Shown here: in pieces, positions 49,862 through 64,000 of the stretch | Layout: each line of letters starts with the position of its first letter | Numbering within the stretch: position 1 is the stretch's first letter | Assembly: GCA_965661285.1 (NCBI GenBank) | Contig: CBFIDD010000003.1 | Coordinates: 269,161 to 333,160 of the forward strand | DNA length: 64,000 bases | From: Poseidonia sp. | GTDB lineage: Archaea > Thermoplasmatota > Poseidoniia > Poseidoniales > Poseidoniaceae | Direction: 5' to 3' | Translations under genes and position numbers: made by a program | The notes under the pieces: generated by a model | Seen by the model: the letters and a program-made list of their open reading frames with translations, nothing else | What the model was told of the DNA's origin: nothing | The model's database searches: none

Positions 49862-52669
49862 TCAACCAAACTTGGCACCGCACACCGAACACTCCATCGC
49901 ACCAACGGGGAGGTCAGCACCACAGGCGCCGCACTCATCGGTCTGTTCGGGCTCATTCTTCTCGGCTTTCCGAGGCGCTCGGCGGCGAGCTGGTTTACTC
50001 CCTTTGGGCGTCGGGGCCTTTTTTGACGGATTGGCTGCTGAGAACGAAACGTCGTCATCGTCGTCAAAGGCAAAATTGGCCGTGGCTTCTTCCACCTCGT
50101 TGCCGGCAAACGACGAGTCGGTGAGGCTCATGCCCACCTTGACCTTCTCGCCCGGCAGGACACCCTCTTCGCCCGTGATCTCGAACAGTTGTTCACGAAT
50201 GGCTGCATCGGAAGCGCTGAGTTCGCCGGATTCTTGTTCCAAGGATTTGAGTTCACCCTTCTCGGAAAGGATGGAGTCAAGACCTTTGTCAGCCTTCTCA
50301 GCAGGGGAGCGCAACGTCGTCATGACCTGTTCTTTGTAGGCCTCAATCTCTTCATCGGTCATGTCTTCCATGGCCATTTCATCGGCGAAGCGACGGTCGT
50401 AAGCGGCTTCCACCTCGGCTTCTGCAGCCTGGATGTTGGTGTCCCATTCATCTTCAAGATGGTCTTCATCAAAGCCGAACGCCTTGACGGCATCAGCAAA
50501 GTTTTCCGTTCCGGTCACAATTTCATCGCCGTCGTCCTCGGGAAGAGCAACCTCTTCTTTGACGACCTCACGACGTTCACGACGCTCCCTGCGTTCAAAG
50601 AAGGACGAAACATCCTGAGCAGCACCGCAATAGACGCAATTTTCGAGGAGATCGGGAATGGATTCGCCGCACTCGTGACAGTCGTGGAATTGATTCCTCG
50701 CCTTCTTGAGGTTGAACATGCAGTGCGGGCAGCGGTCTTCTGTACCTTCCAACTCACCATCGCAAGCAGGGCAGTATTCGTAGATGTCCCGCTCAACCTC
50801 CTCCTCGCGCTCCCGGGTCAACACCACGGCGGCGACCAGCGCTCCAATGAGGCCGAGGGCGACAAGACCGAACAGGGTCAACGTCCCTGCTTCCGAACTT
50901 GACCCAGCACCATCGTCGCCGGTGGTGCTGGCCAGGGTCGCAAAGGATCGTGAAAAGGTCGTGCTGATGGAGGTGTCCTCTGGGATAAGGCGGATGCTGG
51001 TCATGGCGGCCGTGGCGGTAAAGGTGCAGGAGAGTTCGGCACGGTCGCCTCTGTTTTCCACGTTGACGGACATGGTCGAGAGCACCGTGTTGCTCGCATC
51101 TCGACAGGTGTAGTTGGCCTGACCGGTCTCTTGGCTCGTCAAACCGATGGTGAGGGTGTAAACCGCTCCATCGGCCAACGGCATGGTTGGTACCTCGTTG
51201 TCAACGTCCAGCAACTCCAAGGAAGCGTACTCCCAATCCAATTTGAGTTTCGATTCCACGAGCACCGTGCCGGTGGCAAAGGAGTTCTGCTTATTGGCGT
51301 CCCAACTTCCAGAGGCGGCCACCCATTGACCCTCAAAGTCGGCGGTGTGTGCACCCAAAGCCGTGGGCAGAGACACCGTCCATGTGAAGGCTTCACCGGC
51401 GTCGAGCAGGATTGGAGGCGATTGACCTTGAAGGCCGTCAAAGGTGTATTGGATGTTGCCAGAAACGCCGATATCGCCCGTGTTTTCCATGGTCACTCGC
51501 CATTCCACGTCCTCGCCCGATTGAACCGAGGGAACGGTTGGAAGGGCGTTGGCGTCCACGTAGACATCGGGGATCGGGTAGATGGTGAGCACGCCCGAAG
51601 CAATGTCGTTGTCGGTTCGCTCCTGCTCGTATCCTGCAGCGTTGAAAGGGTTGATCTTGGCAGAGATCACGTGGTCTCCGTCGGGAAGAGAAGCGAGCGT
51701 GGACGCATTGAGGACAGTGCTGAAGGCTTGTTCGGTATACCCCATGCCGCTCATTGAGACCGTGAAGGGCTGACCGGTGATCATCCCGCCCGAGAGCGTT
51801 GGCAACTGAAGTCGCACGGGGACGTCAATCGGACCGGTTCCGTTGGTTCGCACCATGGTGCCTTCCACGATCCACGGTCCTTCGAGCGCTCCTTCAGCGG
51901 TGGTGACCGTCAGGTCGTCTTTGAAACTCAAATCCATTCGCGTGGCGACCACAAGCTCAACATCGGACATCTTGTTCATCTCCGAGGCTTCCTCGACGAC
52001 GTTTTCGGCATCGGGCGTGACTTGAACGAGATGGACACCGCTGCTCGGTGCCGTGATGGTGGTGTTCACCCACGCCGATGAGCCCGCTGTCAAGGCAGGC
52101 GTGGTGAGCAGGACATCGCTGGATTCGGGGACTTCGACCAGGAGCTTCGTCTCCGGTGCTTCAACGCTTCCAGAATTCAAGACCAACGTGGACAACGCGA
52201 CCGTATCGCCCGAATACACAACGTCCGTATCGGTCAATTCGAGCGTATCGATGCGAAGATTGGCCAGACCCTGGACGTCGAATTCCTTGTTGAACCGTGC
52301 TTGTACATCGCCACCGGCTGAGAATTCAAACCACACCTTGTGGGTGCCTTCGGTGAGGCCTGACCATGTCGTGCTGGCCGTGTAGTAGTCTTCAGCGGCC
52401 ACCGTGACGGCATCCAAAAGAAGGCGATTGGCGGGCGTGATGCTCTCTTTGTAAAACGCGATTTCAACATCCAACGCATCGCTCTGCTGACTGTTGTAAA
52501 GCACCACATCGATGTCGACCGAACCGCCCATGACGGGGTTTTGTGGCGTCAGGGACATGGTGAACTCAGAGGCTTGGACGCCACCGCTCGATTCGGCGTG
52601 AGCAGAAAGGGGGAGAACGCTGGCAACAAGAAGGCAGAGGATGAACATCGCCTTTGCTTTCGGCTCCAT
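49862..52669 (-). CDS. Secreted/membrane CARDB-domain protein with cytoplasmic zinc ribbons and acidic region
   Basis: Signal peptide, CARDB-like motifs (TPDAENVVEEASEMN, ERTDND), a TM, four CxxC motifs, then terminal CGAC...CSVC. Confidence 0.85.
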   Translation of the reverse strand: MEPKAKAMFILCLLVASVLPLSAHAESSGGVQASEFTMSLTPQNPVMGGSVDIDVVLYNSQQSDALDVEIAFYKESITPANRLLLDAVTVAAEDYYTASTTWSGLTEGTHKVWFEFSAGGDVQARFNKEFDVQGLANLRIDTLELTDTDVVYSGDTVALSTLVLNSGSVEAPETKLLVEVPESSDVLLTTPALTAGSSAWVNTTITAPSSGVHLVQVTPDAENVVEEASEMNKMSDVELVVATRMDLSFKDDLTVTTAEGALEGPWIVEGTMVRTNGTGPIDVPVRLQLPTLSGGMITGQPFTVSMSGMGYTEQAFSTVLNASTLASLPDGDHVISAKINPFNAAGYEQERTDNDIASGVLTIYPIPDVYVDANALPTVPSVQSGEDVEWRVTMENTGDIGVSGNIQYTFDGLQGQSPPILLDAGEAFTWTVSLPTALGAHTADFEGQWVAASGSWDANKQNSFATGTVLVESKLKLDWEYASLELLDVDNEVPTMPLADGAVYTLTIGLTSQETGQANYTCRDASNTVLSTMSVNVENRGDRAELSCTFTATAAMTSIRLIPEDTSISTTFSRSFATLASTTGDDGAGSSSEAGTLTLFGLVALGLIGALVAAVVLTREREEEVERDIYEYCPACDGELEGTEDRCPHCMFNLKKARNQFHDCHECGESIPDLLENCVYCGAAQDVSSFFERRERRERREVVKEEVALPEDDGDEIVTGTENFADAVKAFGFDEDHLEDEWDTNIQAAEAEVEAAYDRRFADEMAMEDMTDEEIEAYKEQVMTTLRSPAEKADKGLDSILSEKGELKSLEQESGELSASDAAIREQLFEITGEEGVLPGEKVKVGMSLTDSSFAGNEVEEATANFAFDDDDDVSFSAANPSKKAPTPKGSKPARRRAPRKAEKNEPEQTDECGACGADLPVGAMECSVCGAKFG

Positions 52670-52835: not shown

Positions 52836-54656
52836 ATGGGACGAAGCGTCGCGGCCGTTTGGCTGGTCACCCTTCTGCTGTGTTCCCTCATCCCCGGGAC
52901 GTGGCTTGGGCCCGAAGGGGTCGATGAACTCCAAGAAGGGGCGGTTGTCTCTGCAAGCGCCTCAAACCTCGTCATCGCCTTCTCCAACGGTCCGGCGGAC
53001 AACGACGAAATCAAAGGCACCCATGCCCTAACCTTCAGCGTTTCGGGCAGTGGTACGCTGGCCTCGTTGTTGATTGAAATCACCACGGATGAGTCAACGT
53101 GGACCACCGTGGTCAACCTGACGACGACGCCGTGGATGTTCCCGCTTGACACGACCGGCTACACCAACGACACCTACAAACTCCGAGCCTCGGGGTGGGA
53201 TAGCGACAGCGAGAGTTTCACCCTCGCCACCTCAGGCTGGTTCGACATCGTCAATCAGGTCCCTGTCATCACCACCTTCACCGTACTCAATCCAGACGCC
53301 GGGACGGGTGCAAGTCTGGCCGACCGTGCTTGGTTCAACATCGACGCACAGGGCACCATCGCCTTCCGTTGGGGCGCCAGTGATGATGACTTGAAACAAG
53401 CAACACTCGCCAATGTCCCCGGACCGGGAACGCCGCCCACCGATGGACCAACATCCCTGAGTTATGGATGGGATTGGAGCAGCGGAAGCATGCAGGAAGG
53501 CACCTGGTCGCCACGACTGACCGTCCAAGACAACTCCGGACTTTCCGCCACCTCAACCCTGTTCATTGGCATTGACCGCACGGGGCCGACCATCGGGAGC
53601 GTAACCGTAGGCGACGGAAGTGCATGGCAGCAATCCAACAGCGTCACCGTGAGCGGCTTGCTGACCCAAGCGGATGACGGCCAGGGCTCAGGCGTTGCCA
53701 GCGTGCAATACGCCTTGGGCGAGCAGCCATGGTCCACGACCATCACCGACAGCATCACCCTCACCCTTGAGGAAGGCATCCACACCCTCACCCTACGAGC
53801 CGTTGACCGGGTGGGTAATATCGGCGAAAACAGCACGGTCACCGTTCGTGTCGACCAAACAGCACCCATCGGATTGTCCTGGACGGTGGACGAGTTGACG
53901 ACCAGCAGAATCGGAGCGGCCAACATTGCCTTCAGTGCTGAGGACGCCGACTCCGGCATCGACAACGGTTCCTCCTACATCCAGTACGGCTTTGATTCCA
54001 ACGGCGTGGGTGAAACCCCCGACCTCTCCGGCCGATGGTTGACGTTGGGCGTGAACGGTCTCTCAGGTCAAGTAGGACTCGCCAGTTGGGCGACAAAGTC
54101 CCGACAACACCTGATGCTGCGGGCCATCCTCGTCGACGAAGCGGGCAACTCGTACACAACACAAGCATCGTCATACCAAATTCTGCCCGGGCTCGACCTT
54201 TCGTGGAATATCAGCCAAACCAACGTTGACCGCATCGTGGTCCGGCCCGGCGAGCAAACCGGGAACATCACCATCACCAGCGTGTTGGAATCGAACGAAG
54301 ATTACGGTGGAAGCGTCATCGTACGCCTTGAAACCGCTCCAGCCGACCGCTCTTCAAACGTTGACTGGACGGTCATGGAGACACGAAACCTGCCGGCCGG
54401 TACGCTCTCAAACAGCACCGAAACCATCGTATGGCAGTACACTGTACCTCGTTCGGGACAGTTTGACCTTCGCCTCGTGATCGATTTCGCTGACGTCATC
54501 GATGAGTACGATGAAGGAAACAATGCGAACTACCTCGTCGTCACCGGCGCTGCGCTCGACGCCCCCGGACTCGTGCCGTCCTTCGCCCCTTCGTTGCTGG
54601 TCATCGTCCTCGTCGGCTTCGCCCTCAGCCTGCTCCAGCGCCGGACAAGGGATTGA
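52836..54656 (+). CDS. Secreted Ig-like/CARDB surface protein with C-terminal PSF-TM-RR sorting-like signal
   Basis: Signal peptide, AVDRVGN / DRTGP / DQTAP Ig motifs, IDEYDEGNN, and VPSFAPSLLVIVLVGFALSLLQRR. Confidence 0.8.
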   Translation: MGRSVAAVWLVTLLLCSLIPGTWLGPEGVDELQEGAVVSASASNLVIAFSNGPADNDEIKGTHALTFSVSGSGTLASLLIEITTDESTWTTVVNLTTTPWMFPLDTTGYTNDTYKLRASGWDSDSESFTLATSGWFDIVNQVPVITTFTVLNPDAGTGASLADRAWFNIDAQGTIAFRWGASDDDLKQATLANVPGPGTPPTDGPTSLSYGWDWSSGSMQEGTWSPRLTVQDNSGLSATSTLFIGIDRTGPTIGSVTVGDGSAWQQSNSVTVSGLLTQADDGQGSGVASVQYALGEQPWSTTITDSITLTLEEGIHTLTLRAVDRVGNIGENSTVTVRVDQTAPIGLSWTVDELTTSRIGAANIAFSAEDADSGIDNGSSYIQYGFDSNGVGETPDLSGRWLTLGVNGLSGQVGLASWATKSRQHLMLRAILVDEAGNSYTTQASSYQILPGLDLSWNISQTNVDRIVVRPGEQTGNITITSVLESNEDYGGSVIVRLETAPADRSSNVDWTVMETRNLPAGTLSNSTETIVWQYTVPRSGQFDLRLVIDFADVIDEYDEGNNANYLVVTGAALDAPGLVPSFAPSLLVIVLVGFALSLLQRRTRD

Positions 54657-57196: not shown

Positions 57197-58897
57197 TCAC
57201 CATGCACCGACAAGTGCGTTGGCAGCGGCTTCACAGAGCGCGATCAGTTGCCCGGCACCAACGCCGAAGTACACCGTTGTGATGAGACAGGCGATGATGG
57301 CAAAACGAACGGGTGTTCCCTTGGGAAGGGGACCTTCTCGACCTGCTTCAGGCTCGTGGAAATACATGACGAGCCCAACACGGAGGTAGTAGAACACCGA
57401 GATGGCCGAGTTGATGACCATCAGAAGGGCGAGGTACCAGACCCAGTGAATGTCGGCAAAGACCAGGTCGCTGTTGACCGTGACGTCAAGCAGAGCGACC
57501 TTGACGATGCCCATGATCACCAGCAACTTGGACACAAAGCCAGACAGCGGAGGTACACCGGCCAAGGACATCATGAAGATGAACATGGCCACCGCAAGGA
57601 AGGGGTCTCGCTTGGCAAGGCCACCGAGCGATTCGAGGGTGTGGCCGCCCTTTTCTGATTCGAGCAGCGAGAGGACGAGGAAGGCGCCGAGCTTGAAGCA
57701 CACCAGCACCGAGAGGTGGAAGATGAGGGCCGTGACGACCACCAAGGCCGCATCGTTGCTCATGTCGATGTGGCCGTCTTCCCAGTTCAGCGCACCAATG
57801 GCCGTGATGGCGGCCAGCATGTAGCCGGCGTGGGCCACGGAGGAGTACGCCAGCATGCGCTTTGGATTGGTTGAACCAAGCGCTGCGAGGTTGCCCCACG
57901 TCATCGTGATGACCGAAAGGGTGCCGAGGGCCACGAGCCACACCGCGGAGCCGTCGGTGGCCTCAGGCGAAGCGACAACGAGCAGGATACGGAGCAAACC
58001 GAGCACGCCCATGGCCTTGCTGGCAGTCGCCAGCACACCTGCAACAGGTGCTGTCGCTCCTGCATAGGCGTCGGGGGCAGCAAAATGGAACGGCGCTGCG
58101 CTGACCTTGAAGCCAAAGCCAACCAGCAACATACCAAGGGCGATCAGCGGCAGAGGTTCCATCCCGTTTTCGGCAAAGGCGACCGAAAGGTCGGCGAACT
58201 GGAGCGAGCCCGACCAAAGGTAGAGCAACGACAGGCCATAGAGACCAACACCGGACGCTACGGAGCCGACGATGAAGTACTTCATTCCGGCCTCGGTGCC
58301 TTCCTTGCTTTCTTTCATGAAGGAAACCAAAACGTAGGTGGAGAACGAAGCGAGTTCAAGACCGACAAAGAGCATGAAGAGGTCTTGGGAGAGGGCAACA
58401 ACGGCCATGCCGAGTCCCGTGGTGATCAGCAGGATGTAGAAATCAACTTGGCGACGGTTGTTGTACAGGCCGTTCAGGCTTCGGTCGGCCCGGCTGGTTG
58501 CGGGAATGCGATTGACCGAAGCAGCACTGGCCAGCGCAAGCGCACCGAAGAAAATCAACTCAAACATGCGACTGAACTCGTCGATTTGGAGCATCGTTGT
58601 GCCACCGGGCGTGATGATTTGCGTCTGTTTCATGCCACCGATGAACGAGACCACGGTCAAGCCGAATGCGATGGTGAAGAACACCGTAGCGAACAAACCC
58701 GGCAGTCTCGGGTCGCTGTCAAGTTTCCCGCGTCGTCCACCAAGGAGCCAGGGGATACGAATCTGCGTGAGCGGGATGCGGAATTTAGCGTCGCCCATGT
58801 TGGGAACAATCATCAACGTGAACAAGCCGATAACGAGGACAAATTCAGGCGCAAGCGCAAGCACAAAGCCTTCTGCAAAGGGTTCTACTCGCTCCAT
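57197..58897 (-). CDS. nuoN: NADH-quinone oxidoreductase subunit N
   Basis: EAGMKYF, FKVSAAPFH..APDAY, KRMLAYSSVAH, SLAGVPP, YYLR. Confidence 0.95.
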   Translation of the reverse strand: MERVEPFAEGFVLALAPEFVLVIGLFTLMIVPNMGDAKFRIPLTQIRIPWLLGGRRGKLDSDPRLPGLFATVFFTIAFGLTVVSFIGGMKQTQIITPGGTTMLQIDEFSRMFELIFFGALALASAASVNRIPATSRADRSLNGLYNNRRQVDFYILLITTGLGMAVVALSQDLFMLFVGLELASFSTYVLVSFMKESKEGTEAGMKYFIVGSVASGVGLYGLSLLYLWSGSLQFADLSVAFAENGMEPLPLIALGMLLVGFGFKVSAAPFHFAAPDAYAGATAPVAGVLATASKAMGVLGLLRILLVVASPEATDGSAVWLVALGTLSVITMTWGNLAALGSTNPKRMLAYSSVAHAGYMLAAITAIGALNWEDGHIDMSNDAALVVVTALIFHLSVLVCFKLGAFLVLSLLESEKGGHTLESLGGLAKRDPFLAVAMFIFMMSLAGVPPLSGFVSKLLVIMGIVKVALLDVTVNSDLVFADIHWVWYLALLMVINSAISVFYYLRVGLVMYFHEPEAGREGPLPKGTPVRFAIIACLITTVYFGVGAGQLIALCEAAANALVGAW

Positions 58898-58898
58898 C

Positions 58899-60533
58899 TC
58901 AGGCACCTCCCAAAATCGGAATCAAGAGCGTTTCAAAGAACGCCACCGTCCATCCGTTCATCATGTCCAGCGCAATCCACGGCATGACACCGAAGAGGAT
59001 GGTGAACACCGCCATGATGACCATGGCCAGTTTTTCGCTGTCGGCGATGTCGGGAACGGGTTGCCCCTTGAGGCTCTCAGGAGGCTGCGTTTCATCGCCA
59101 CCTTCGAAGATGGTGCGCTGCATCGACCAGAGGTAGTAGGCGGCGGTGATGGCCAGCACGAAGGCTGGACCAACCATCCACAGCACGCTCCAGCCCTCTG
59201 CGGCGAGGAAATGCCACAGCGCCAAGAACATCATCAACTCAGCGACGAAACCTGCCAGAAGCGGCAGGCCAAGGGAAGCCATCCAAGCGAACATCATCGA
59301 CGTGGCGAGCCAAGGTGAGTGCTTGGCCATACCGCGCATGGCACCGATTTCCATGCTGTGGTAGTGGTGCTTGAACGCGCCACAGACTGCGAAAAGCATG
59401 GGGCTGATGATGCCGTGAGCGAACATCATGAACAGCGCTGCAGCCCAACCAAGCGGTTGCATGGTGGCGATGCCGATGAGGATAACACCCATGTGAGAAA
59501 CCGAGGAGTAGGCGACCATCTTCTTGAGATTGGTTTGGCCCAGACACACCACGGCACCCCACACAAGGGAGATCATACCGAGGGCCAGCAAGGCAAACTG
59601 GAAGTGTTGGGCTGCGTGTGGGAAGAACGCCAACGGCAAGCGGAACATACCGTAGGCACCCATCTTCAGCATGACACCGGCCAGCAGCATGGAGCCACCG
59701 GTTGGGGCTTGGACGTGGGCATCGGGCAGCCAGGTGTGGAAGGGTACAGAAGGCAGCTTCACGAGGAACCCGATCATCAGCATGACGAACAGGATCTTCT
59801 GCAAACTCTCGCCGAGGAACCAGGCGCCACCAGCGTTGGCGGATTGTGCGTGAGCGGTCAAGGTTGGGATGTCAAAGGTGCGACCGGTCCAAGCGCCAGC
59901 GTAGGAGAGGTTCTCCGGCTGGAGGAAGTACACGGTGACCAAGCCGAGAAGCATGATGACCGAGGCGGTGAACGTGTAGATGAAGAACTTCTGAGAAGCG
60001 TACTTTCGGTCGTAGCCACCCCATTTGAGGATGAGGAAGAACATCGGAATCAAGGTCAATTCCCAGAACACGTAGAACATGAACAGGTCCAAAGCCACGA
60101 AGACACCGATAAGCGCCCCGCCCATCATCAACACGAGCGGGAAGTAAATGGCAGCGTTCTTTTCGTTCCACGTGGCCACGATGGTCACCGGGAGGAGGAA
60201 GGTTGTGAGCCACACCATGGGGAAGGACAAGGCGTCCAAGCCCACACTCCAGTGAATGCCGAGCGATTCAATCCAAACGTATCGGAACTCATAGTTGAAC
60301 GAACCAAACGAAAGCGAGGCCCAGTCGAGGGTGCCTTCGATGTACTCGTTGCCGAGGAACATGGCCGTGGTGAGCGCCAGCATCAACAACGAGAAGATGA
60401 GGGTCGCCATACGAACCGAAGGCCCCATACGCTCACGAGCGGCAGGTGATGCGTAGGCTACGAAGGCCAGAATGGCGATGCTGGTGACAAGCGGCAGGGC
60501 CACCAGTGGAATGGAAATCCAGTCGGTCGTCAA
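58899..60533 (-). CDS. nuoM: NADH-quinone oxidoreductase subunit M
   Basis: FYVFWE, PFHTWLPDAHVQAP, LKMGAYG, AYSSVSHMG. TTG start overlaps the nuoL stop. Confidence 0.95.
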   Translation of the reverse strand: MTTDWISIPLVALPLVTSIAILAFVAYASPAARERMGPSVRMATLIFSLLMLALTTAMFLGNEYIEGTLDWASLSFGSFNYEFRYVWIESLGIHWSVGLDALSFPMVWLTTFLLPVTIVATWNEKNAAIYFPLVLMMGGALIGVFVALDLFMFYVFWELTLIPMFFLILKWGGYDRKYASQKFFIYTFTASVIMLLGLVTVYFLQPENLSYAGAWTGRTFDIPTLTAHAQSANAGGAWFLGESLQKILFVMLMIGFLVKLPSVPFHTWLPDAHVQAPTGGSMLLAGVMLKMGAYGMFRLPLAFFPHAAQHFQFALLALGMISLVWGAVVCLGQTNLKKMVAYSSVSHMGVILIGIATMQPLGWAAALFMMFAHGIISPMLFAVCGAFKHHYHSMEIGAMRGMAKHSPWLATSMMFAWMASLGLPLLAGFVAELMMFLALWHFLAAEGWSVLWMVGPAFVLAITAAYYLWSMQRTIFEGGDETQPPESLKGQPVPDIADSEKLAMVIMAVFTILFGVMPWIALDMMNGWTVAFFETLLIPILGGA

Positions 60534-63136
60534 GCGACCACCCCCCAAATCAGTGCAAAGAGACCCAAGGTGCCAAGCGCCGCCATCAAGATGTAATCAC
60601 GTGCTGAACCCGTGGTCAGCGAGCGGAATTTGGTCGAGAGTTGTTGCGAAGTTCGCTCAATCGTCTTGACCGTGCCGTCGATAACGCTGGAGTCGGCCTC
60701 AGCGGCCTTGAAGGAGAACGCAGCGACGATCTTTAGCATCGCCATGTCGTAGTAGTGATCGAAGTAAAGGCGGTTCTCGAGGGCCGTGGCGAAACCGGAT
60801 TGGCCGAAGGACGAGTTGTCCCAATGGTAGCGGTCCTTCACAAACTGATTGACGGCCAACACGGGGCCGAACCACGGCATCGTGCTCTCGCCCTCGTCAA
60901 GCTTTCCACCATAGAGCGAAAGCGCCAGCCCGGGACCGACGATGGCGCCCAGAAGAATAGCGATGTAGGTCAGCACGAAGAAGAAGGAATCGCTGTTCGC
61001 AAAGGCATGTTCCATCTCATAGACGAAGCCTTCAAGGAAGGATTTCTTCCCGTCAAAGAACGGTTTGTAGTACTCGTCAGGCGCCCAGTGGGTAAAGCCC
61101 ATGCTCGCCAAAACAATGGCGCTGAGGCTCATGAACGTCAGGATGAACAACGGGGTCTTGATCCACGTGTTGGTTGGGTGCACGTGCGCTGCCACATCGG
61201 TTTTTGGCGAGCCTGCAAAGGTCTTGAGCCACATGCGGGACATGTAGAAGCCCGTCATGGCAGCACCGAGCAGCACGCACATGGCCGGATAGAAAAAGCG
61301 GGGGTCGTCAAGCGCCACGCGCCAAGTGTTGGCGATGATGCCTTCCTTTGACCAGAAACCACCGATGAGCGGGAAGCCCATGATGGAGAGCGAACCGACG
61401 AGCATGGCGGTGGCGGTCAGCGGCATCTTTGAGGCCAAGCCGCCCATGTTCTCCATGGACTGGGCATCAAACTCGTCGTGATCGTCGTGGTGGTCATCGC
61501 CGCCCAACGAAGCAAGGTGAACGCGACCGAGGGTCAGTTCGAGTTCGGGGACGTTGATCTTCCCGTTGCCGTCCATGTCAAGGGCGTCCATCAGCGGTTT
61601 TATTTCCCACGGTGGCAGGTCGGCGATGTTCGCATCCTTGAGGGCTTTTTGGAACTCATAGGTGTCCACTTCGCCCGACTGGTCGAGGTCGATGGCGTTG
61701 AAGAAGCCGAACACCGACTGGCCGGTTTCAGCCAGATAGTTGGCGAGCATGAGCAGTTCCTTTGGCTCCTCGTCGTGGTGTTCGTCGTCGTGAGGGTGCA
61801 GGTGGTGATGGGCATGGTGAACCTCGTGAATCACCGCACCGCTGGCCATGAAGAGCATGCCCTTGGCCATGGCGTGGTTGAACAGATGGAAGAGGGCGGC
61901 GCCAAAGGCGACGATGACGATGCCGTGATTGACGTAGTAGTCGGGGTTCTTGGTGCCGTCAGCGAGGTATTCGTGCCAGTGCAGGGTGTTGGCGAGGTAG
62001 AGTGCAGCTCCCAAGCCGGTGAAGATGTAGGCGAGTTGCGACATGGTCGAATACGCCAGGACCTTCTTGAGGTCGTGCTGGACAAAGGCAATGGCCGCTG
62101 CCATGACGGCGGTGGTTCCACCGATGGCGGCGATGATGAACGCCAGGTCCGCAAGTTCACCGTGAAGCGCATCGGCGCCGAAGAACGGGAACATGCGGGC
62201 AACGAGGTAGAGACCGGCGTTGACCATCGTAGCAGCGTGAATCAAAGCGGAAACCGGCGTTGGCCCTTCCATAGCGTCGGGCAACCAAACGTGGAGCGGG
62301 AATTGAGCGGATTTGCCCACCGCACCAATGAACATCAATCCGAGCGCCCAAGCCAGGGTGCCCGAGTTGTTGGCCGCCACTTGCTCGATGTTGCCTTCGT
62401 AGAAGACGACGGCGTAGTCAAGCGCACCTTGGTCGGCACCGGCGTACGGGTGGAAGAGCGACCAGAGCATGGCCAAGCCCACCATGAGGAACACGTCGCC
62501 GACACGGGTGGTCAAAAACGCCTTCTTTGCGGCGTAGGCAGCGCTGGGGCGTTCGTAGTAGAAGCCGATGAGCAAGTAGGAACACAAGCCCATCAGTTCC
62601 CAGAAGATGAACAGCCAGAGGAAGGAATCCGCCAGCACCATGCCGAGCATACCGGAGCAGAACAGGACAAACTCAGCGTAGAACCGGTGGTTTCGGTTGT
62701 CGTTGATGGGGTCGGTGTTCATGTAACCGATGGCGAAGGTGTTGATGAGCAAACACAGGAAGGAGGCGATGAACAGCAACATCACGGTGACGTGGTCGAT
62801 GTAGATACCAAAGCCGAGGGTGATTTCGGTCACGGTGGTTTGACCCGAATCCCACATGCCGGAGGTGAACCATGTCCACTTCTCGGTTTCACCCGCACCG
62901 CTGCCACCGATGAAATCAGTGATGAGCCACAGCGAGAGGATGAGGCTTCCAGCCATGACCGGGAGGGCGATGAGACCGCCCTCTTTGAGGCCCTCTTTCC
63001 ATGTCTTGTTCCCGTTGAGCACCTTCCCGAGGAAGAGGATCACGGGGAACGCCAGCATGGGCAAAAGAAGAATGTAGGGTGCGTATTCCAACGCCGTGCT
63101 TTGAACTGCTTCTGTGCTACCTGAACCTGCCATCAT
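60530..63136 (-). CDS. nuoL: NADH-quinone oxidoreductase subunit L with EF-hand insertion
   Basis: WELMGLCSYLLIGF, KSAQFPLHVWLPDAMEGPTPVSALIHAATMV, KKVLAYSTMSQ, GFWSKE. Confidence 0.96.
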   Translation of the reverse strand: MMAGSGSTEAVQSTALEYAPYILLLPMLAFPVILFLGKVLNGNKTWKEGLKEGGLIALPVMAGSLILSLWLITDFIGGSGAGETEKWTWFTSGMWDSGQTTVTEITLGFGIYIDHVTVMLLFIASFLCLLINTFAIGYMNTDPINDNRNHRFYAEFVLFCSGMLGMVLADSFLWLFIFWELMGLCSYLLIGFYYERPSAAYAAKKAFLTTRVGDVFLMVGLAMLWSLFHPYAGADQGALDYAVVFYEGNIEQVAANNSGTLAWALGLMFIGAVGKSAQFPLHVWLPDAMEGPTPVSALIHAATMVNAGLYLVARMFPFFGADALHGELADLAFIIAAIGGTTAVMAAAIAFVQHDLKKVLAYSTMSQLAYIFTGLGAALYLANTLHWHEYLADGTKNPDYYVNHGIVIVAFGAALFHLFNHAMAKGMLFMASGAVIHEVHHAHHHLHPHDDEHHDEEPKELLMLANYLAETGQSVFGFFNAIDLDQSGEVDTYEFQKALKDANIADLPPWEIKPLMDALDMDGNGKINVPELELTLGRVHLASLGGDDHHDDHDEFDAQSMENMGGLASKMPLTATAMLVGSLSIMGFPLIGGFWSKEGIIANTWRVALDDPRFFYPAMCVLLGAAMTGFYMSRMWLKTFAGSPKTDVAAHVHPTNTWIKTPLFILTFMSLSAIVLASMGFTHWAPDEYYKPFFDGKKSFLEGFVYEMEHAFANSDSFFFVLTYIAILLGAIVGPGLALSLYGGKLDEGESTMPWFGPVLAVNQFVKDRYHWDNSSFGQSGFATALENRLYFDHYYDMAMLKIVAAFSFKAAEADSSVIDGTVKTIERTSQQLSTKFRSLTTGSARDYILMAALGTLGLFALIWGVVA

Positions 63137-63142
63137 ACCACC

Positions 63143-63445
63143 TCAGTTCTTCAGGACGTTCACGTCGTCCAGCGTAATCGATTCGTGTTGCCCGTACATG
63201 GCGAGGAAAATGGCCAACCCGATGGCCACCTCGCTGGCAGCGATGGCGATGGCGAAGATGGTGTAGACCCACCCTGTCGTATCACCGTGGTGCACGGCAG
63301 CGGCGGCGAACTGCATGTTCGCTGCGTTGAGCATCAATTCAATGCACATCAAGACGATGATCGCGTTCTTTCGGGTGAATGCACCGGCCAAGCCGATGAC
63401 GAAAAGGAGTGCAGAAAGACCGGAAACCCATGCTGGATCGATCAT
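63143..63445 (-). CDS. nuoK: NADH-quinone oxidoreductase subunit K
   Basis: RKNAIIVLMCIELMLNAAN, IAASEVAIGLAI. Confidence 0.96.
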   Translation of the reverse strand: MIDPAWVSGLSALLFVIGLAGAFTRKNAIIVLMCIELMLNAANMQFAAAAVHHGDTTGWVYTIFAIAIAASEVAIGLAIFLAMYGQHESITLDDVNVLKN

Positions 63446-63711
63446 TCTTCTTCACCTCCAAATTCCCAAAGGAGATTCTCCATTCGCTCGTCTCGAACGA
63501 GGTAGGCCGCCCCCATCATGGCCATGGCCATGAGAAGGCCGAGCACGAGCAGCGCAAAGCCCCACTCGTTGAGCAGCGAATCGGCCAGTCCCGCAGTGGT
63601 CGGTGTCGTGGTAGCCGGGTCGGCCCACACGCTGTCGTCGTTGAGTACGGCGACGAGGATGAAGCCGAGCGCCAACAAACCGAGACGGGTAAACAGCGAG
63701 GTGAACTTCAT
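63442..63711 (-). CDS. nuoJ: NuoJ C-terminal half (split subunit J2)
   Basis: LADSLLNEW...LLMAMAMMGAAYL, and position between J1 and K with ATGA overlaps. Confidence 0.8.
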   Translation of the reverse strand: MKFTSLFTRLGLLALGFILVAVLNDDSVWADPATTTPTTAGLADSLLNEWGFALLVLGLLMAMAMMGAAYLVRDERMENLLWEFGGEEE

Positions 63712-63992
63712 TCGAAGTCCTCCTCGAGAATTTGACGTCGGGTCAACATGATACCGAAGAGCACCACCAAACCGACGCTGGCCAGGTAAACCAGGATTTG
63801 AATGGCAGCGAGGAACTCAGCACCCAAAAGGATGAAAATTCCGGAAACGGCCATGAAACAGAAGATCAGCGAGAGCATGGAATGGGCTACTCGCTGGGCG
63901 AAGATGAGGCCAAGCGCTCCACCGAGCGTGATGGCTGCAAACAGGAAGAAAACACCGGTTTCGGCAGCGCTGGCCACATCCATCTCAAGCAT
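63708..63992 (-). CDS. nuoJ: NuoJ N-terminal half (split subunit J1)
   Basis: VAHSMLSL...LGAEFLAAIQILVY...LFGIMLT. Confidence 0.9.
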   Translation of the reverse strand: MLEMDVASAAETGVFFLFAAITLGGALGLIFAQRVAHSMLSLIFCFMAVSGIFILLGAEFLAAIQILVYLASVGLVVLFGIMLTRRQILEEDFE

Positions 63993-64000
63993 CCCCCTTC

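Follow-up and report, generated by a model that had tools for sequence, protein, structure and literature searches.

A predicted Ca2+-binding EF-hand pair inserted into the NuoL pump subunit of a Poseidonia complex I-type enzyme

The window analyzed here was a 64,000-nucleotide stretch of a Poseidonia sp. genome (contig C3 of genome G000). Its gene nuoL, encoding an antiporter-like subunit of a complex I-type enzyme, holds an in-frame insert with two EF-hands between predicted transmembrane helices (TM) 11 and 12. The gene and the parts of the insert are given below by window position, with amino acids (aa) numbered along the open reading frame (ORF) and predicted helices taken from an AlphaFold2 (AF2) model.

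60530..63136, minus strand: nuoL, antiporter-like subunit of a complex I-type enzyme, a single ORF of 868 aa
61766..61828, minus strand: 5' His/Asp-rich segment, aa 437-457, read from the sequence; predicted extension of the TM11 helix (AF2 helix 400-446)
61520..61765, minus strand: core of the EF-hand cassette, aa 458-539; two EF-hands preceded by a helix, from Pfam, PDB matches and AF2 helices
61655..61690, minus strand: EF loop 1, DLDQSGEVDTYE, aa 483-494, 12 residues
61544..61579, minus strand: EF loop 2, DMDGNGKINVPE, aa 520-531, 12 residues
61469..61519, minus strand: linker and 3' His/Asp-rich segment, aa 540-556, read from the sequence
61343..61360, minus strand: GFWSKE, aa 593-598; its Lys597 falls where TM12 is predicted to break; G593, F594 and K597 invariant in alignment A1 (51 sequences)

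The host protein was identified as NuoL by domain content and by its charged residues. Pfam matched Proton_antipo_M (E 1.8e-58) and Proton_antipo_N (E 2.9e-9), and the NCBIfam model TIGR01974 (NDH_I_L) scored 423.2 bits against a cut-off of 407.5, passing the family threshold; the equivalog PRK06590 scored 459.9, below its cut-off of 556. Solved chains of NdhF and Nqo12 were matched at E 9e-74 and 3.4e-68, respectively. Residues E180, K275, H300 and K597 were invariant in A1; from the AF2 helices and the E. coli/Thermus numbering, we take them to be the TM5 Glu, TM7 Lys, TM8 His and TM12 Lys. The Proton_antipo domains, the invariant charged residues and the nuoJ-K-L-M-N gene row are shared with NuoL, Nqo12, ND5 and NdhF. 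A preliminary description of this DNA had read the protein as NuoL of a marine archaeon; a Poseidonia-type marine source is supported by the source names of its relatives and the presence of the stretch in marine metagenomes.

The insert, about 118 aa long, separates ...LFMASGAVIHE from ...FDAQSMENMGGL. When aligned with solved NdhF (6hum_F), residues 442-552 stood opposite 3 chain residues, and ordinary NuoL relatives have 5-8 residues at the same site; in this loop the protein differs from solved NdhF and from its ordinary relatives. Three Pfam models exceeded their cut-offs on the insert (EF-hand_5, 31.6 against 25.9; EF-hand_1, 30.0 against 25.4; EF-hand_6, 27.8 against 25.0), and the pair model EF-hand_7 reached 26.6, short of its cut-off of 30. 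A phmmer search of PDB sequences with the 120-aa insert retrieved 190 EF-hand chains at E <= 0.01, headed by 2aao, the calmodulin-like domain of a Ca-dependent protein kinase (CDPK; E 2.1e-9), with centrins also among the matches. Both loops satisfied the EF-hand canon: their oxygen ligands fall on positions 1, 3, 5, 9 and 12, position 6 is Gly and position 8 is hydrophobic. The ORF, the insertion and the EF-hand fold class were confirmed, and the in-frame position, the loop coordinates and the canonical pair with intact ligands all stood as first described. A search of 1.8 billion representatives with the whole NuoL listed 150 matches, which were ordinary NuoL relatives and uninformative on the insert.

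Like calmodulin, centrin and the CDPK domain, the insert has two 12-residue loops, helix-loop-helix twice, and a predicted paired bridge. It differs in being one pair rather than four EF-hands, in being embedded in a polytopic membrane protein, and in an extra conserved N-terminal helix and LPPWE linker, which those proteins are not known to have. Calmodulin or centrin proper was rejected as an identity, given two loops rather than four within a membrane protein; the resemblance is to one lobe only. Dockerin type I was likewise rejected, its model scoring 13.9 bits (cut-off 22.9, E 0.066).

Contigs from two independent studies bridged both junctions of the insert, showing that it was not an assembly artefact. 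A 510-nt contig spanning 61358-61867 was present in runs X2 and X3, one from each study, with 1-2 differences, and a contig of run X10 spanned 61250-61823 with 0 differences; the check was made on assembled contigs, not raw reads. A search with NuoL residues 425-570 gave 365 matches. Among the 120 listed, 84 (P0002-P0085) were NuoL-type proteins with EF-hand Pfam marks, 61-92% identical over the region; they came from NCBI, ENA, JGI and Logan, and some were named Poseidonia sp.

Ligand positions were counted in proteins P0001-P0089 except P0086, 88 in all; two had no anchor, and the other 86 gave 58 distinct loop sequences. In loop 1, Asp at position 1, Ser at 5, a hydrophobic residue at 8 and Glu at 12 were found in 58/58, Asp at 3 in 57/58, Asp at 9 in 56/58 and Gly at 6 in 55/58. 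Loop 2 was equally constant, with Asp at 1, Asp or Asn at 3, Asn or Asp at 5, Ile or Leu at 8, Asn or Asp at 9 and Glu at 12 in 58/58, and Gly at 6 in 57/58. The bidentate Glu12 was retained in both loops of every distinct insert, and at 55-58 of 58 the ligands were not degenerate in the homologs. For selection, the window and 29 same-genus loci were taken, and 7 frames below 800 aa were left out, leaving 23 nuoL genes for Nei-Gojobori estimates. With dS at about 1-1.3, near saturation, dN/dS is reliable only as a comparison between regions; the cassette had 0.059, the TM core (aa 100-436) 0.045, aa 557-868 had 0.077 and the His/Asp flanks 0.03-0.04. The cassette was thus comparable with the TM core, indicating strong purifying selection. 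Judged from its canonical loops, the retained Glu12, the conservation and the purifying selection, the NuoL insert very probably binds Ca2+.

The distribution of the insert was surveyed in 146 genomes of the window's family, using the C-terminal 312 aa of NuoL as query, with 139 matches. In the window's genus, 25 of 27 rows had NuoL frames of 847-872 aa and the other 2 were cut by contig ends; the insert was kept in every full-length NuoL sampled from the genus. No NuoL frame longer than 775 aa was found in the 112 matched genomes of the family's 11 other genera. Within the family sample, the NuoL insert occurred only in the window's own genus. Outside the family, one genus has a divergent EF-hand insert at the same NuoL site (an 882-aa frame in genome L052, recognized by Pfam, and proteins P0087-P0089).

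The His-rich segments had been described as part of the insertion, which did not hold. At this site, insert-less NuoL proteins of related Poseidoniales genera (751-765 aa) have an uninterrupted loop of 23-35 aa, rich in His and Asp, making the net gain only about 95 aa. Because the loop is contiguous in these orthologs, the His/Asp-rich segments are older than the insert, and the cassette split an existing loop. A 25-nt stretch of His/Asp codons at 61473-61497 is repeated, directly but imperfectly, at 61770-61794 and 61785-61809, 72-76% alike; His/Asp coding alone can explain this likeness, and recombination is neither proven nor excluded. These repeats flanking the cassette, the split His/Asp-rich stretch in NuoL (and in the ATPase subunit described below), and the closely spaced ends of an EF-hand pair, which make insertion easy, would suit a tolerated passenger that came in by recombination between the repeats and has no role of its own. 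However, the cassette's dN/dS is as low as that of the TM core, its ligand positions are kept, and no full-length NuoL sampled from the genus is without it. We consider a passenger very improbable.

The AF2 model of NuoL, built from a 51-row alignment, had a pLDDT of 69 and a pTM of 0.70. The predicted helix preceding the insert ran on into the first His-rich part as a continuation of TM11. Helices within the insert were predicted at 459-471, 475-481, 492-501, 509-519 and 529-544. Short bridges were predicted at 489-491 and 526-528, which correspond to positions 7-9 of each EF loop. Such bridges are the hallmark of a paired EF-hand, which the model supports with moderate confidence. Helices 572-586 and 596-610 flanked the invariant K597 and would form the broken TM12, in line with the earlier placing of the insert in the TM11-TM12 loop before the broken helix with the essential Lys. 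Further downstream, helices were predicted at 612-641, 657-678 and 717-742, followed by a long helical stretch at 754-838 and a helix at 849-867; pLDDT was below 50 from residue 772 onward, and the alignment with the C-terminus of solved NdhF was weak (domain E 1.6). Four predicted membrane helices (TM12-15) lie between the insert and the long helical stretch, which would be the lateral helix HL, and for this reason the two would be on one side of the membrane. The HL side is cytoplasmic in solved complex I. The loop had been described as facing the cytoplasm, and the AF2 helix count agrees.

The cassette, first described in complex I, was not restricted to it; in related genomes it was also found on subunit I of the A-type ATPase, on one half of NuoJ and on a protein with an oxidase fold. 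When 401 genomes of the order were searched with the 120-aa insert, matches at E <= 1e-5 were obtained in 253 (by family, 195/199, 2/2 and 55/199). In 15 matching places excised from this search, the frames were read. Two loci in the window's own genome serve as reference for the other hosts.

G000:C3:127645-129681, minus strand: A-type ATPase subunit I of the window's genome, with the linker and without the cassette
L011:4098-6083, equal to G000:C5:66097-68082, plus strand: 661-aa oxidase-fold protein with 12 TM and a C-terminal cassette

In a sister genus, subunit I of the A-type ATPase contains the same cassette of about 82 aa within a His/Asp-rich linker between its soluble N-terminal domain and its membrane domain. 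Hosts were recognized by Pfam (P0086; L042:2971-5385, plus strand) and by phmmer (L047-L051). The 146 family genomes were searched with the C-terminus of the window genome's own subunit I, giving 135 matches. Subunit I frames were 660-689 aa in the window's genus, with one of 717 aa, and 671-747 aa in the remaining genera. Of the 24 sister-genus rows, 21 had frames of 777-847 aa, 2 were cut and had the cassette, and 1 was 699 aa. The two sister genera were reciprocal, with the cassette in NuoL in one and in ATPase subunit I in the other. In the window's genome, subunit I is without the cassette and shows an unbroken His/Asp-rich run exactly at the sister-genus cassette site; the cassette therefore entered a His/Asp linker twice, once in NuoL and once in ATPase subunit I.

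The oxidase-fold protein of the window's genome has relatives at L043-L046, L054-L056 and L089-L106. Its family was found in 40/41 and 22/22 genomes of the order's two large families and in 0/237 genomes of the phylum's other families. The protein ends in the cassette in the window's family, and most copies in the other large family (527-616 aa) are without it. Its AF2 model (pLDDT 83.7, pTM 0.84) was compared with the PDB by Foldseek; the top 45 matches were all subunit I of cbb3, NOR, ba3 or aa3 (best E 2.7e-9, TM-score 0.66-0.78), with cbb3 CcoN and NorB the nearest folds. A search for homologs listed 120 of 868, all 86-92% identical, and the alignment was instead made from diverse genome relatives. 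No conserved His was found in it, no column having His in more than 11 of the 22 aligned sequences. No sequence relatives of the membrane part were found by Pfam, PDB phmmer or a PDB profile search (A2), PF00115 did not match the protein in a genome search at E <= 10, and hhalign against the genome's true COX1 gave a probability of 0.2. The genome's normal COX1 lies at C1:543509-544870. An Atlas lead had made the 661-aa protein COX1-like; it was rejected as a COX1 by sequence, all sequence tests being negative and the fold comparison alone positive; it was also rejected as the NCBIfam calcium-binding effector XopAW (36 bits against a cut-off of 120), a score that reflects plain EF-hand likeness. 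The predicted structure points to a heme-copper oxidase subunit I fold without the metal ligands. At L044, L045, L046 and L054, the C-termini of the oxidase-fold proteins have an acidic spacer after the cassette and a short SAP-like motif, seen by eye and in agreement with an Atlas cluster name.

In a single genome from another family, nuoJ is likewise split, and its C-terminal half is fused to the cassette (L052:3145-3747, plus strand, 201 aa) directly upstream of nuoL, and this nuoL is the one that holds the divergent EF-hand insert. Three further proteins were recorded. A 628-aa protein (L053:2667-4550, plus strand) has the cassette mid-chain, and Pfam matched EF-hand models only. A 619-aa protein (L003:133-1992, minus strand, equal to G000:C2 ~103236-105095) carries two EF-hand pairs along with a double zinc ribbon and a hydrophobic segment, and its tail is very acidic; the first EF-hand pair has an ADLPP linker like that of the cassette, of which the protein is a more distant paralog. 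The C-terminal ~90 aa of the frame at L004:1480-2373 (minus strand) correspond to a small EF-hand pair protein, 27% identical to the cassette and probably stand-alone, the 297-aa frame being likely over-extended upstream.

The cassette would be cytoplasmic in every host whose topology can be inferred, in NuoL by the helix count and in subunit I, the NuoJ C-terminal half and the oxidase-fold protein by the known topologies of the homologous families. The opposite arrangement, a structural site on a loop facing seawater with EF-hands permanently Ca2+-saturated at 10 mM, scarcely deserves belief. Seawater Ca2+ would saturate any EF-hand, and the weak resemblance to dockerin, an extracellular domain, fits such a site. 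However, the helix count puts the loop on the HL side, and the subunit I cassette comes after a soluble N-terminal domain that lies in the cytoplasm in the known A/V-ATPases.

Taken together, the sequences suggest that the NuoL domain is one instance of an approximately 82-aa cassette specific to the Poseidoniales, grafted repeatedly onto chemiosmotic membrane subunits and twice into His/Asp-rich cytoplasmic linkers. In a tree of 33 chosen cassettes (82 columns), 10 of 11 NuoL cassettes of the genus formed one supported clade and the NuoL cassettes of the other family a separate supported clade, and neither the ATPase nor the oxidase-fold cassettes formed one clade. In this tree 14 of the 30 inner branches were open, and it singled out neither a donor nor an order of events.

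The recurrence of the cassette bears on two other explanations of its function. The main rival is a constitutively Ca2+-loaded handle on the cytoplasmic face, which would recruit a shared partner or tie complexes together with no allostery in NuoL. Such a docking or scaffold role would account for near-identical cassettes on four unrelated hosts (NuoL, ATPase subunit I, the NuoJ C-terminal half and the oxidase-fold protein), for the non-ligand surface motifs LPPWE and INLPELDI kept across hosts, for the reciprocal NuoL/ATPase distribution in the two sister genera, and for terminal fusions that are incapable of pulling on two helices. However, no partner is known, the Pfam dockerin score lies far under the cut-off, and fully canonical Glu12 loops are typical of sensor or buffer EF-hands, not just of structural ones. 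A prediction of the NuoL cassette together with the 661-aa protein's cassette from the same genome and 4 Ca scored 0.00 and gave no answer, neither for nor against. Overall, docking is a serious competitor, which we nevertheless hold to be doubtful.

Under the second explanation, the acidic cassette and the His/Asp linkers would together make a charged surface on the cytoplasmic side, close to where protons are taken up, and act as a proton antenna or a divalent-metal buffer or trap, with Ca2+ incidental or stabilizing. His/Asp linkers are found at the NuoL and subunit I sites even without the cassette, the low dN/dS of the NuoL flanks agrees with a role for them, and all recognized hosts are proton-conducting subunits or resemble them in shape. 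An antenna needs only carboxylates and imidazoles, however, and not a conserved loop geometry (Gly6, hydrophobic 8, Glu12) twice over, and the oxidase-fold host has no His-rich flank. Local ion or proton handling as the main function is thus unlikely.

We favor a switch driven by Ca2+ and held at TM11 and TM12a in the distal pump module, to which reading we assign a probability of roughly 0.45. The insert adjoins the invariant H437 and K597 in A1, and the EF-hand domain would be tethered between TM11, with its invariant His and His-rich helix extension, and the broken TM12 with the invariant Lys597. Cytoplasmic Ca2+ would fill both loops, and the loaded domain would change conformation like a calmodulin lobe. 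Because both ends of the domain are anchored to TM11 and TM12a, the switch would alter the geometry or accessibility of the distal module's proton path, coupling pump activity to cytoplasmic Ca2+. With seawater at 10 mM Ca2+, the cytoplasmic concentration would rise upon collapse of the ion gradients. Regulation of proton pumping by Ca2+ through the insert is an inference, as is the proposal in the preliminary description that the domain may also sense pH or metals.

Several points weigh against the switch. Over residues 461-540, pLDDT was 57-72 per 10-residue block, moderate only. The cytoplasmic placement of the NuoL insert, made from the helix count and the HL side, is reasonable but not firm. 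Motifs outside the ligands are alike across hosts (the LPPWE linker, a KELxML..YL helix and INLPELDI), and the conservation of LPPWE and KELxML..YL suggests a shared partner or shared internal packing. The cassette occurs on different complexes in different genera, a pattern that host-independent docking or local ion binding would seem to fit at least equally well, and cassettes appended at a terminus cannot pull on two helices. RNA data gave no evidence of transcription of the insert; contigs of RNA run X16 (90-95% alike) covered only the conserved flanks at 61266-61456 and 61939-62047, and the remaining RNA runs shared 5-7% of sequence words.

The neighbors of nuoL belong to the same enzyme and follow one another on the minus strand in the order split nuoJ, nuoK, nuoL, nuoM, nuoN, all adjacent. 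The window ends with contig C3, within nuoJ.

63708..64000, minus strand: split nuoJ, N-terminal half, truncated at the contig end (Pfam Oxidored_q3 profile positions 1-63, E 2.5e-17)
63442..63711, minus strand: split nuoJ, C-terminal half, 89 aa (Pfam Oxidored_q3 profile positions 82-146, E 5.1e-5, below the cut-off)
63143..63445, minus strand: nuoK (Pfam Oxidored_q2, E 1.7e-25)
58899..60548, minus strand: nuoM-like antiporter subunit (Pfam Proton_antipo_M, E 2.3e-66)
57197..58906, minus strand: nuoN-like antiporter subunit (Pfam Proton_antipo_M, E 1.1e-55)

The preliminary description had spoken of a respiratory complex I; the NuoL identity stood, and the linkage to NADH is in doubt. No NuoF (PF01512) was found in the window's genome, which is 93% complete. 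The complex probably has no NADH-oxidizing module, and since NuoF was not found, its electron donor may not be NADH. Many archaeal complex I-type enzymes are without this module. Elsewhere in the window, two large proteins at 49862-52669 (minus strand) and 52836-54656 (plus strand) have CARDB or Ig-like domains, one of the two with a double zinc ribbon in addition; both are probably surface proteins without connection to the EF-hand finding.

Known systems offer partial parallels. In eukaryotes, EF-hands regulate external type II NAD(P)H dehydrogenases (plants and fungi), NOX5/DUOX, the mitochondrial carriers Aralar/SCaMC, and LETM1. As in the predicted switch, an EF-hand is there fused to a membrane-associated bioenergetic protein and Ca2+ controls electron or ion flow; unlike here, those EF-hands are terminal or inserted in peripheral enzymes, and none is known in an antiporter-like subunit of complex I or in an ATPase a/I subunit. 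In cyanobacterial NDH-1MS, CupA provides an accessory function at the same surface, being placed on the cytoplasmic side of NdhF3, a homolog of NuoL; CupA is a distinct polypeptide whose Zn site serves CO2 hydration, in contrast to the in-chain Ca2+-type domain of NuoL. Public annotation of the cassette proteins reads only 'proton-conducting transporter membrane subunit' or 'EF-hand domain-containing protein'. The earlier statement that no EF-hand is known in a complex I antiporter-like subunit was borne out, as a full-text literature search returned no paper linking an EF-hand to NuoL or to Poseidoniales respiratory complexes; the supplement of PMC9258230 may list such families. According to that paper, the family-specific protein modules of both Poseidoniales families include calcium-binding domains (PMC9258230).

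The recurrence of the cassette on several chemiosmotic subunits and the reciprocal genus pattern make this more than one odd insert. Textbook accounts describe the antiporter-like subunits of complex I without ligand-regulated domains. If the switch is real, the EF-hand pair that joins TM11 to the broken TM12 would make this the first complex I pump module with a built-in input for a second messenger, and the insert would be a natural handle on how movements of TM11 and TM12 relate to proton transfer. The isolated domain is small and soluble, and its Ca2+ binding and switching could be approached without culturing; the Poseidoniales are among the most abundant planktonic archaea and have no known cultured member. 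One genus with the cassette in NuoL and not in the ATPase, and a sister genus with the reverse, provide a natural comparison. Tentatively, a lineage-wide Poseidoniales system may be envisaged, in which a mobile Ca2+-binding cassette was independently grafted onto NuoL, NuoJ, subunit I and the oxidase-fold protein, with His/Asp-codon repeats as landing pads for two of the grafts. In seawater rich in Ca2+, cytoplasmic Ca2+ would then be a read-out of gradient collapse that tunes or tethers the chemiosmotic machines, wired differently from genus to genus. Found on the ATP synthase of a sister genus and on a family-wide oxidase-fold protein, the cassette points to Ca2+ signaling in archaeal energy conversion.

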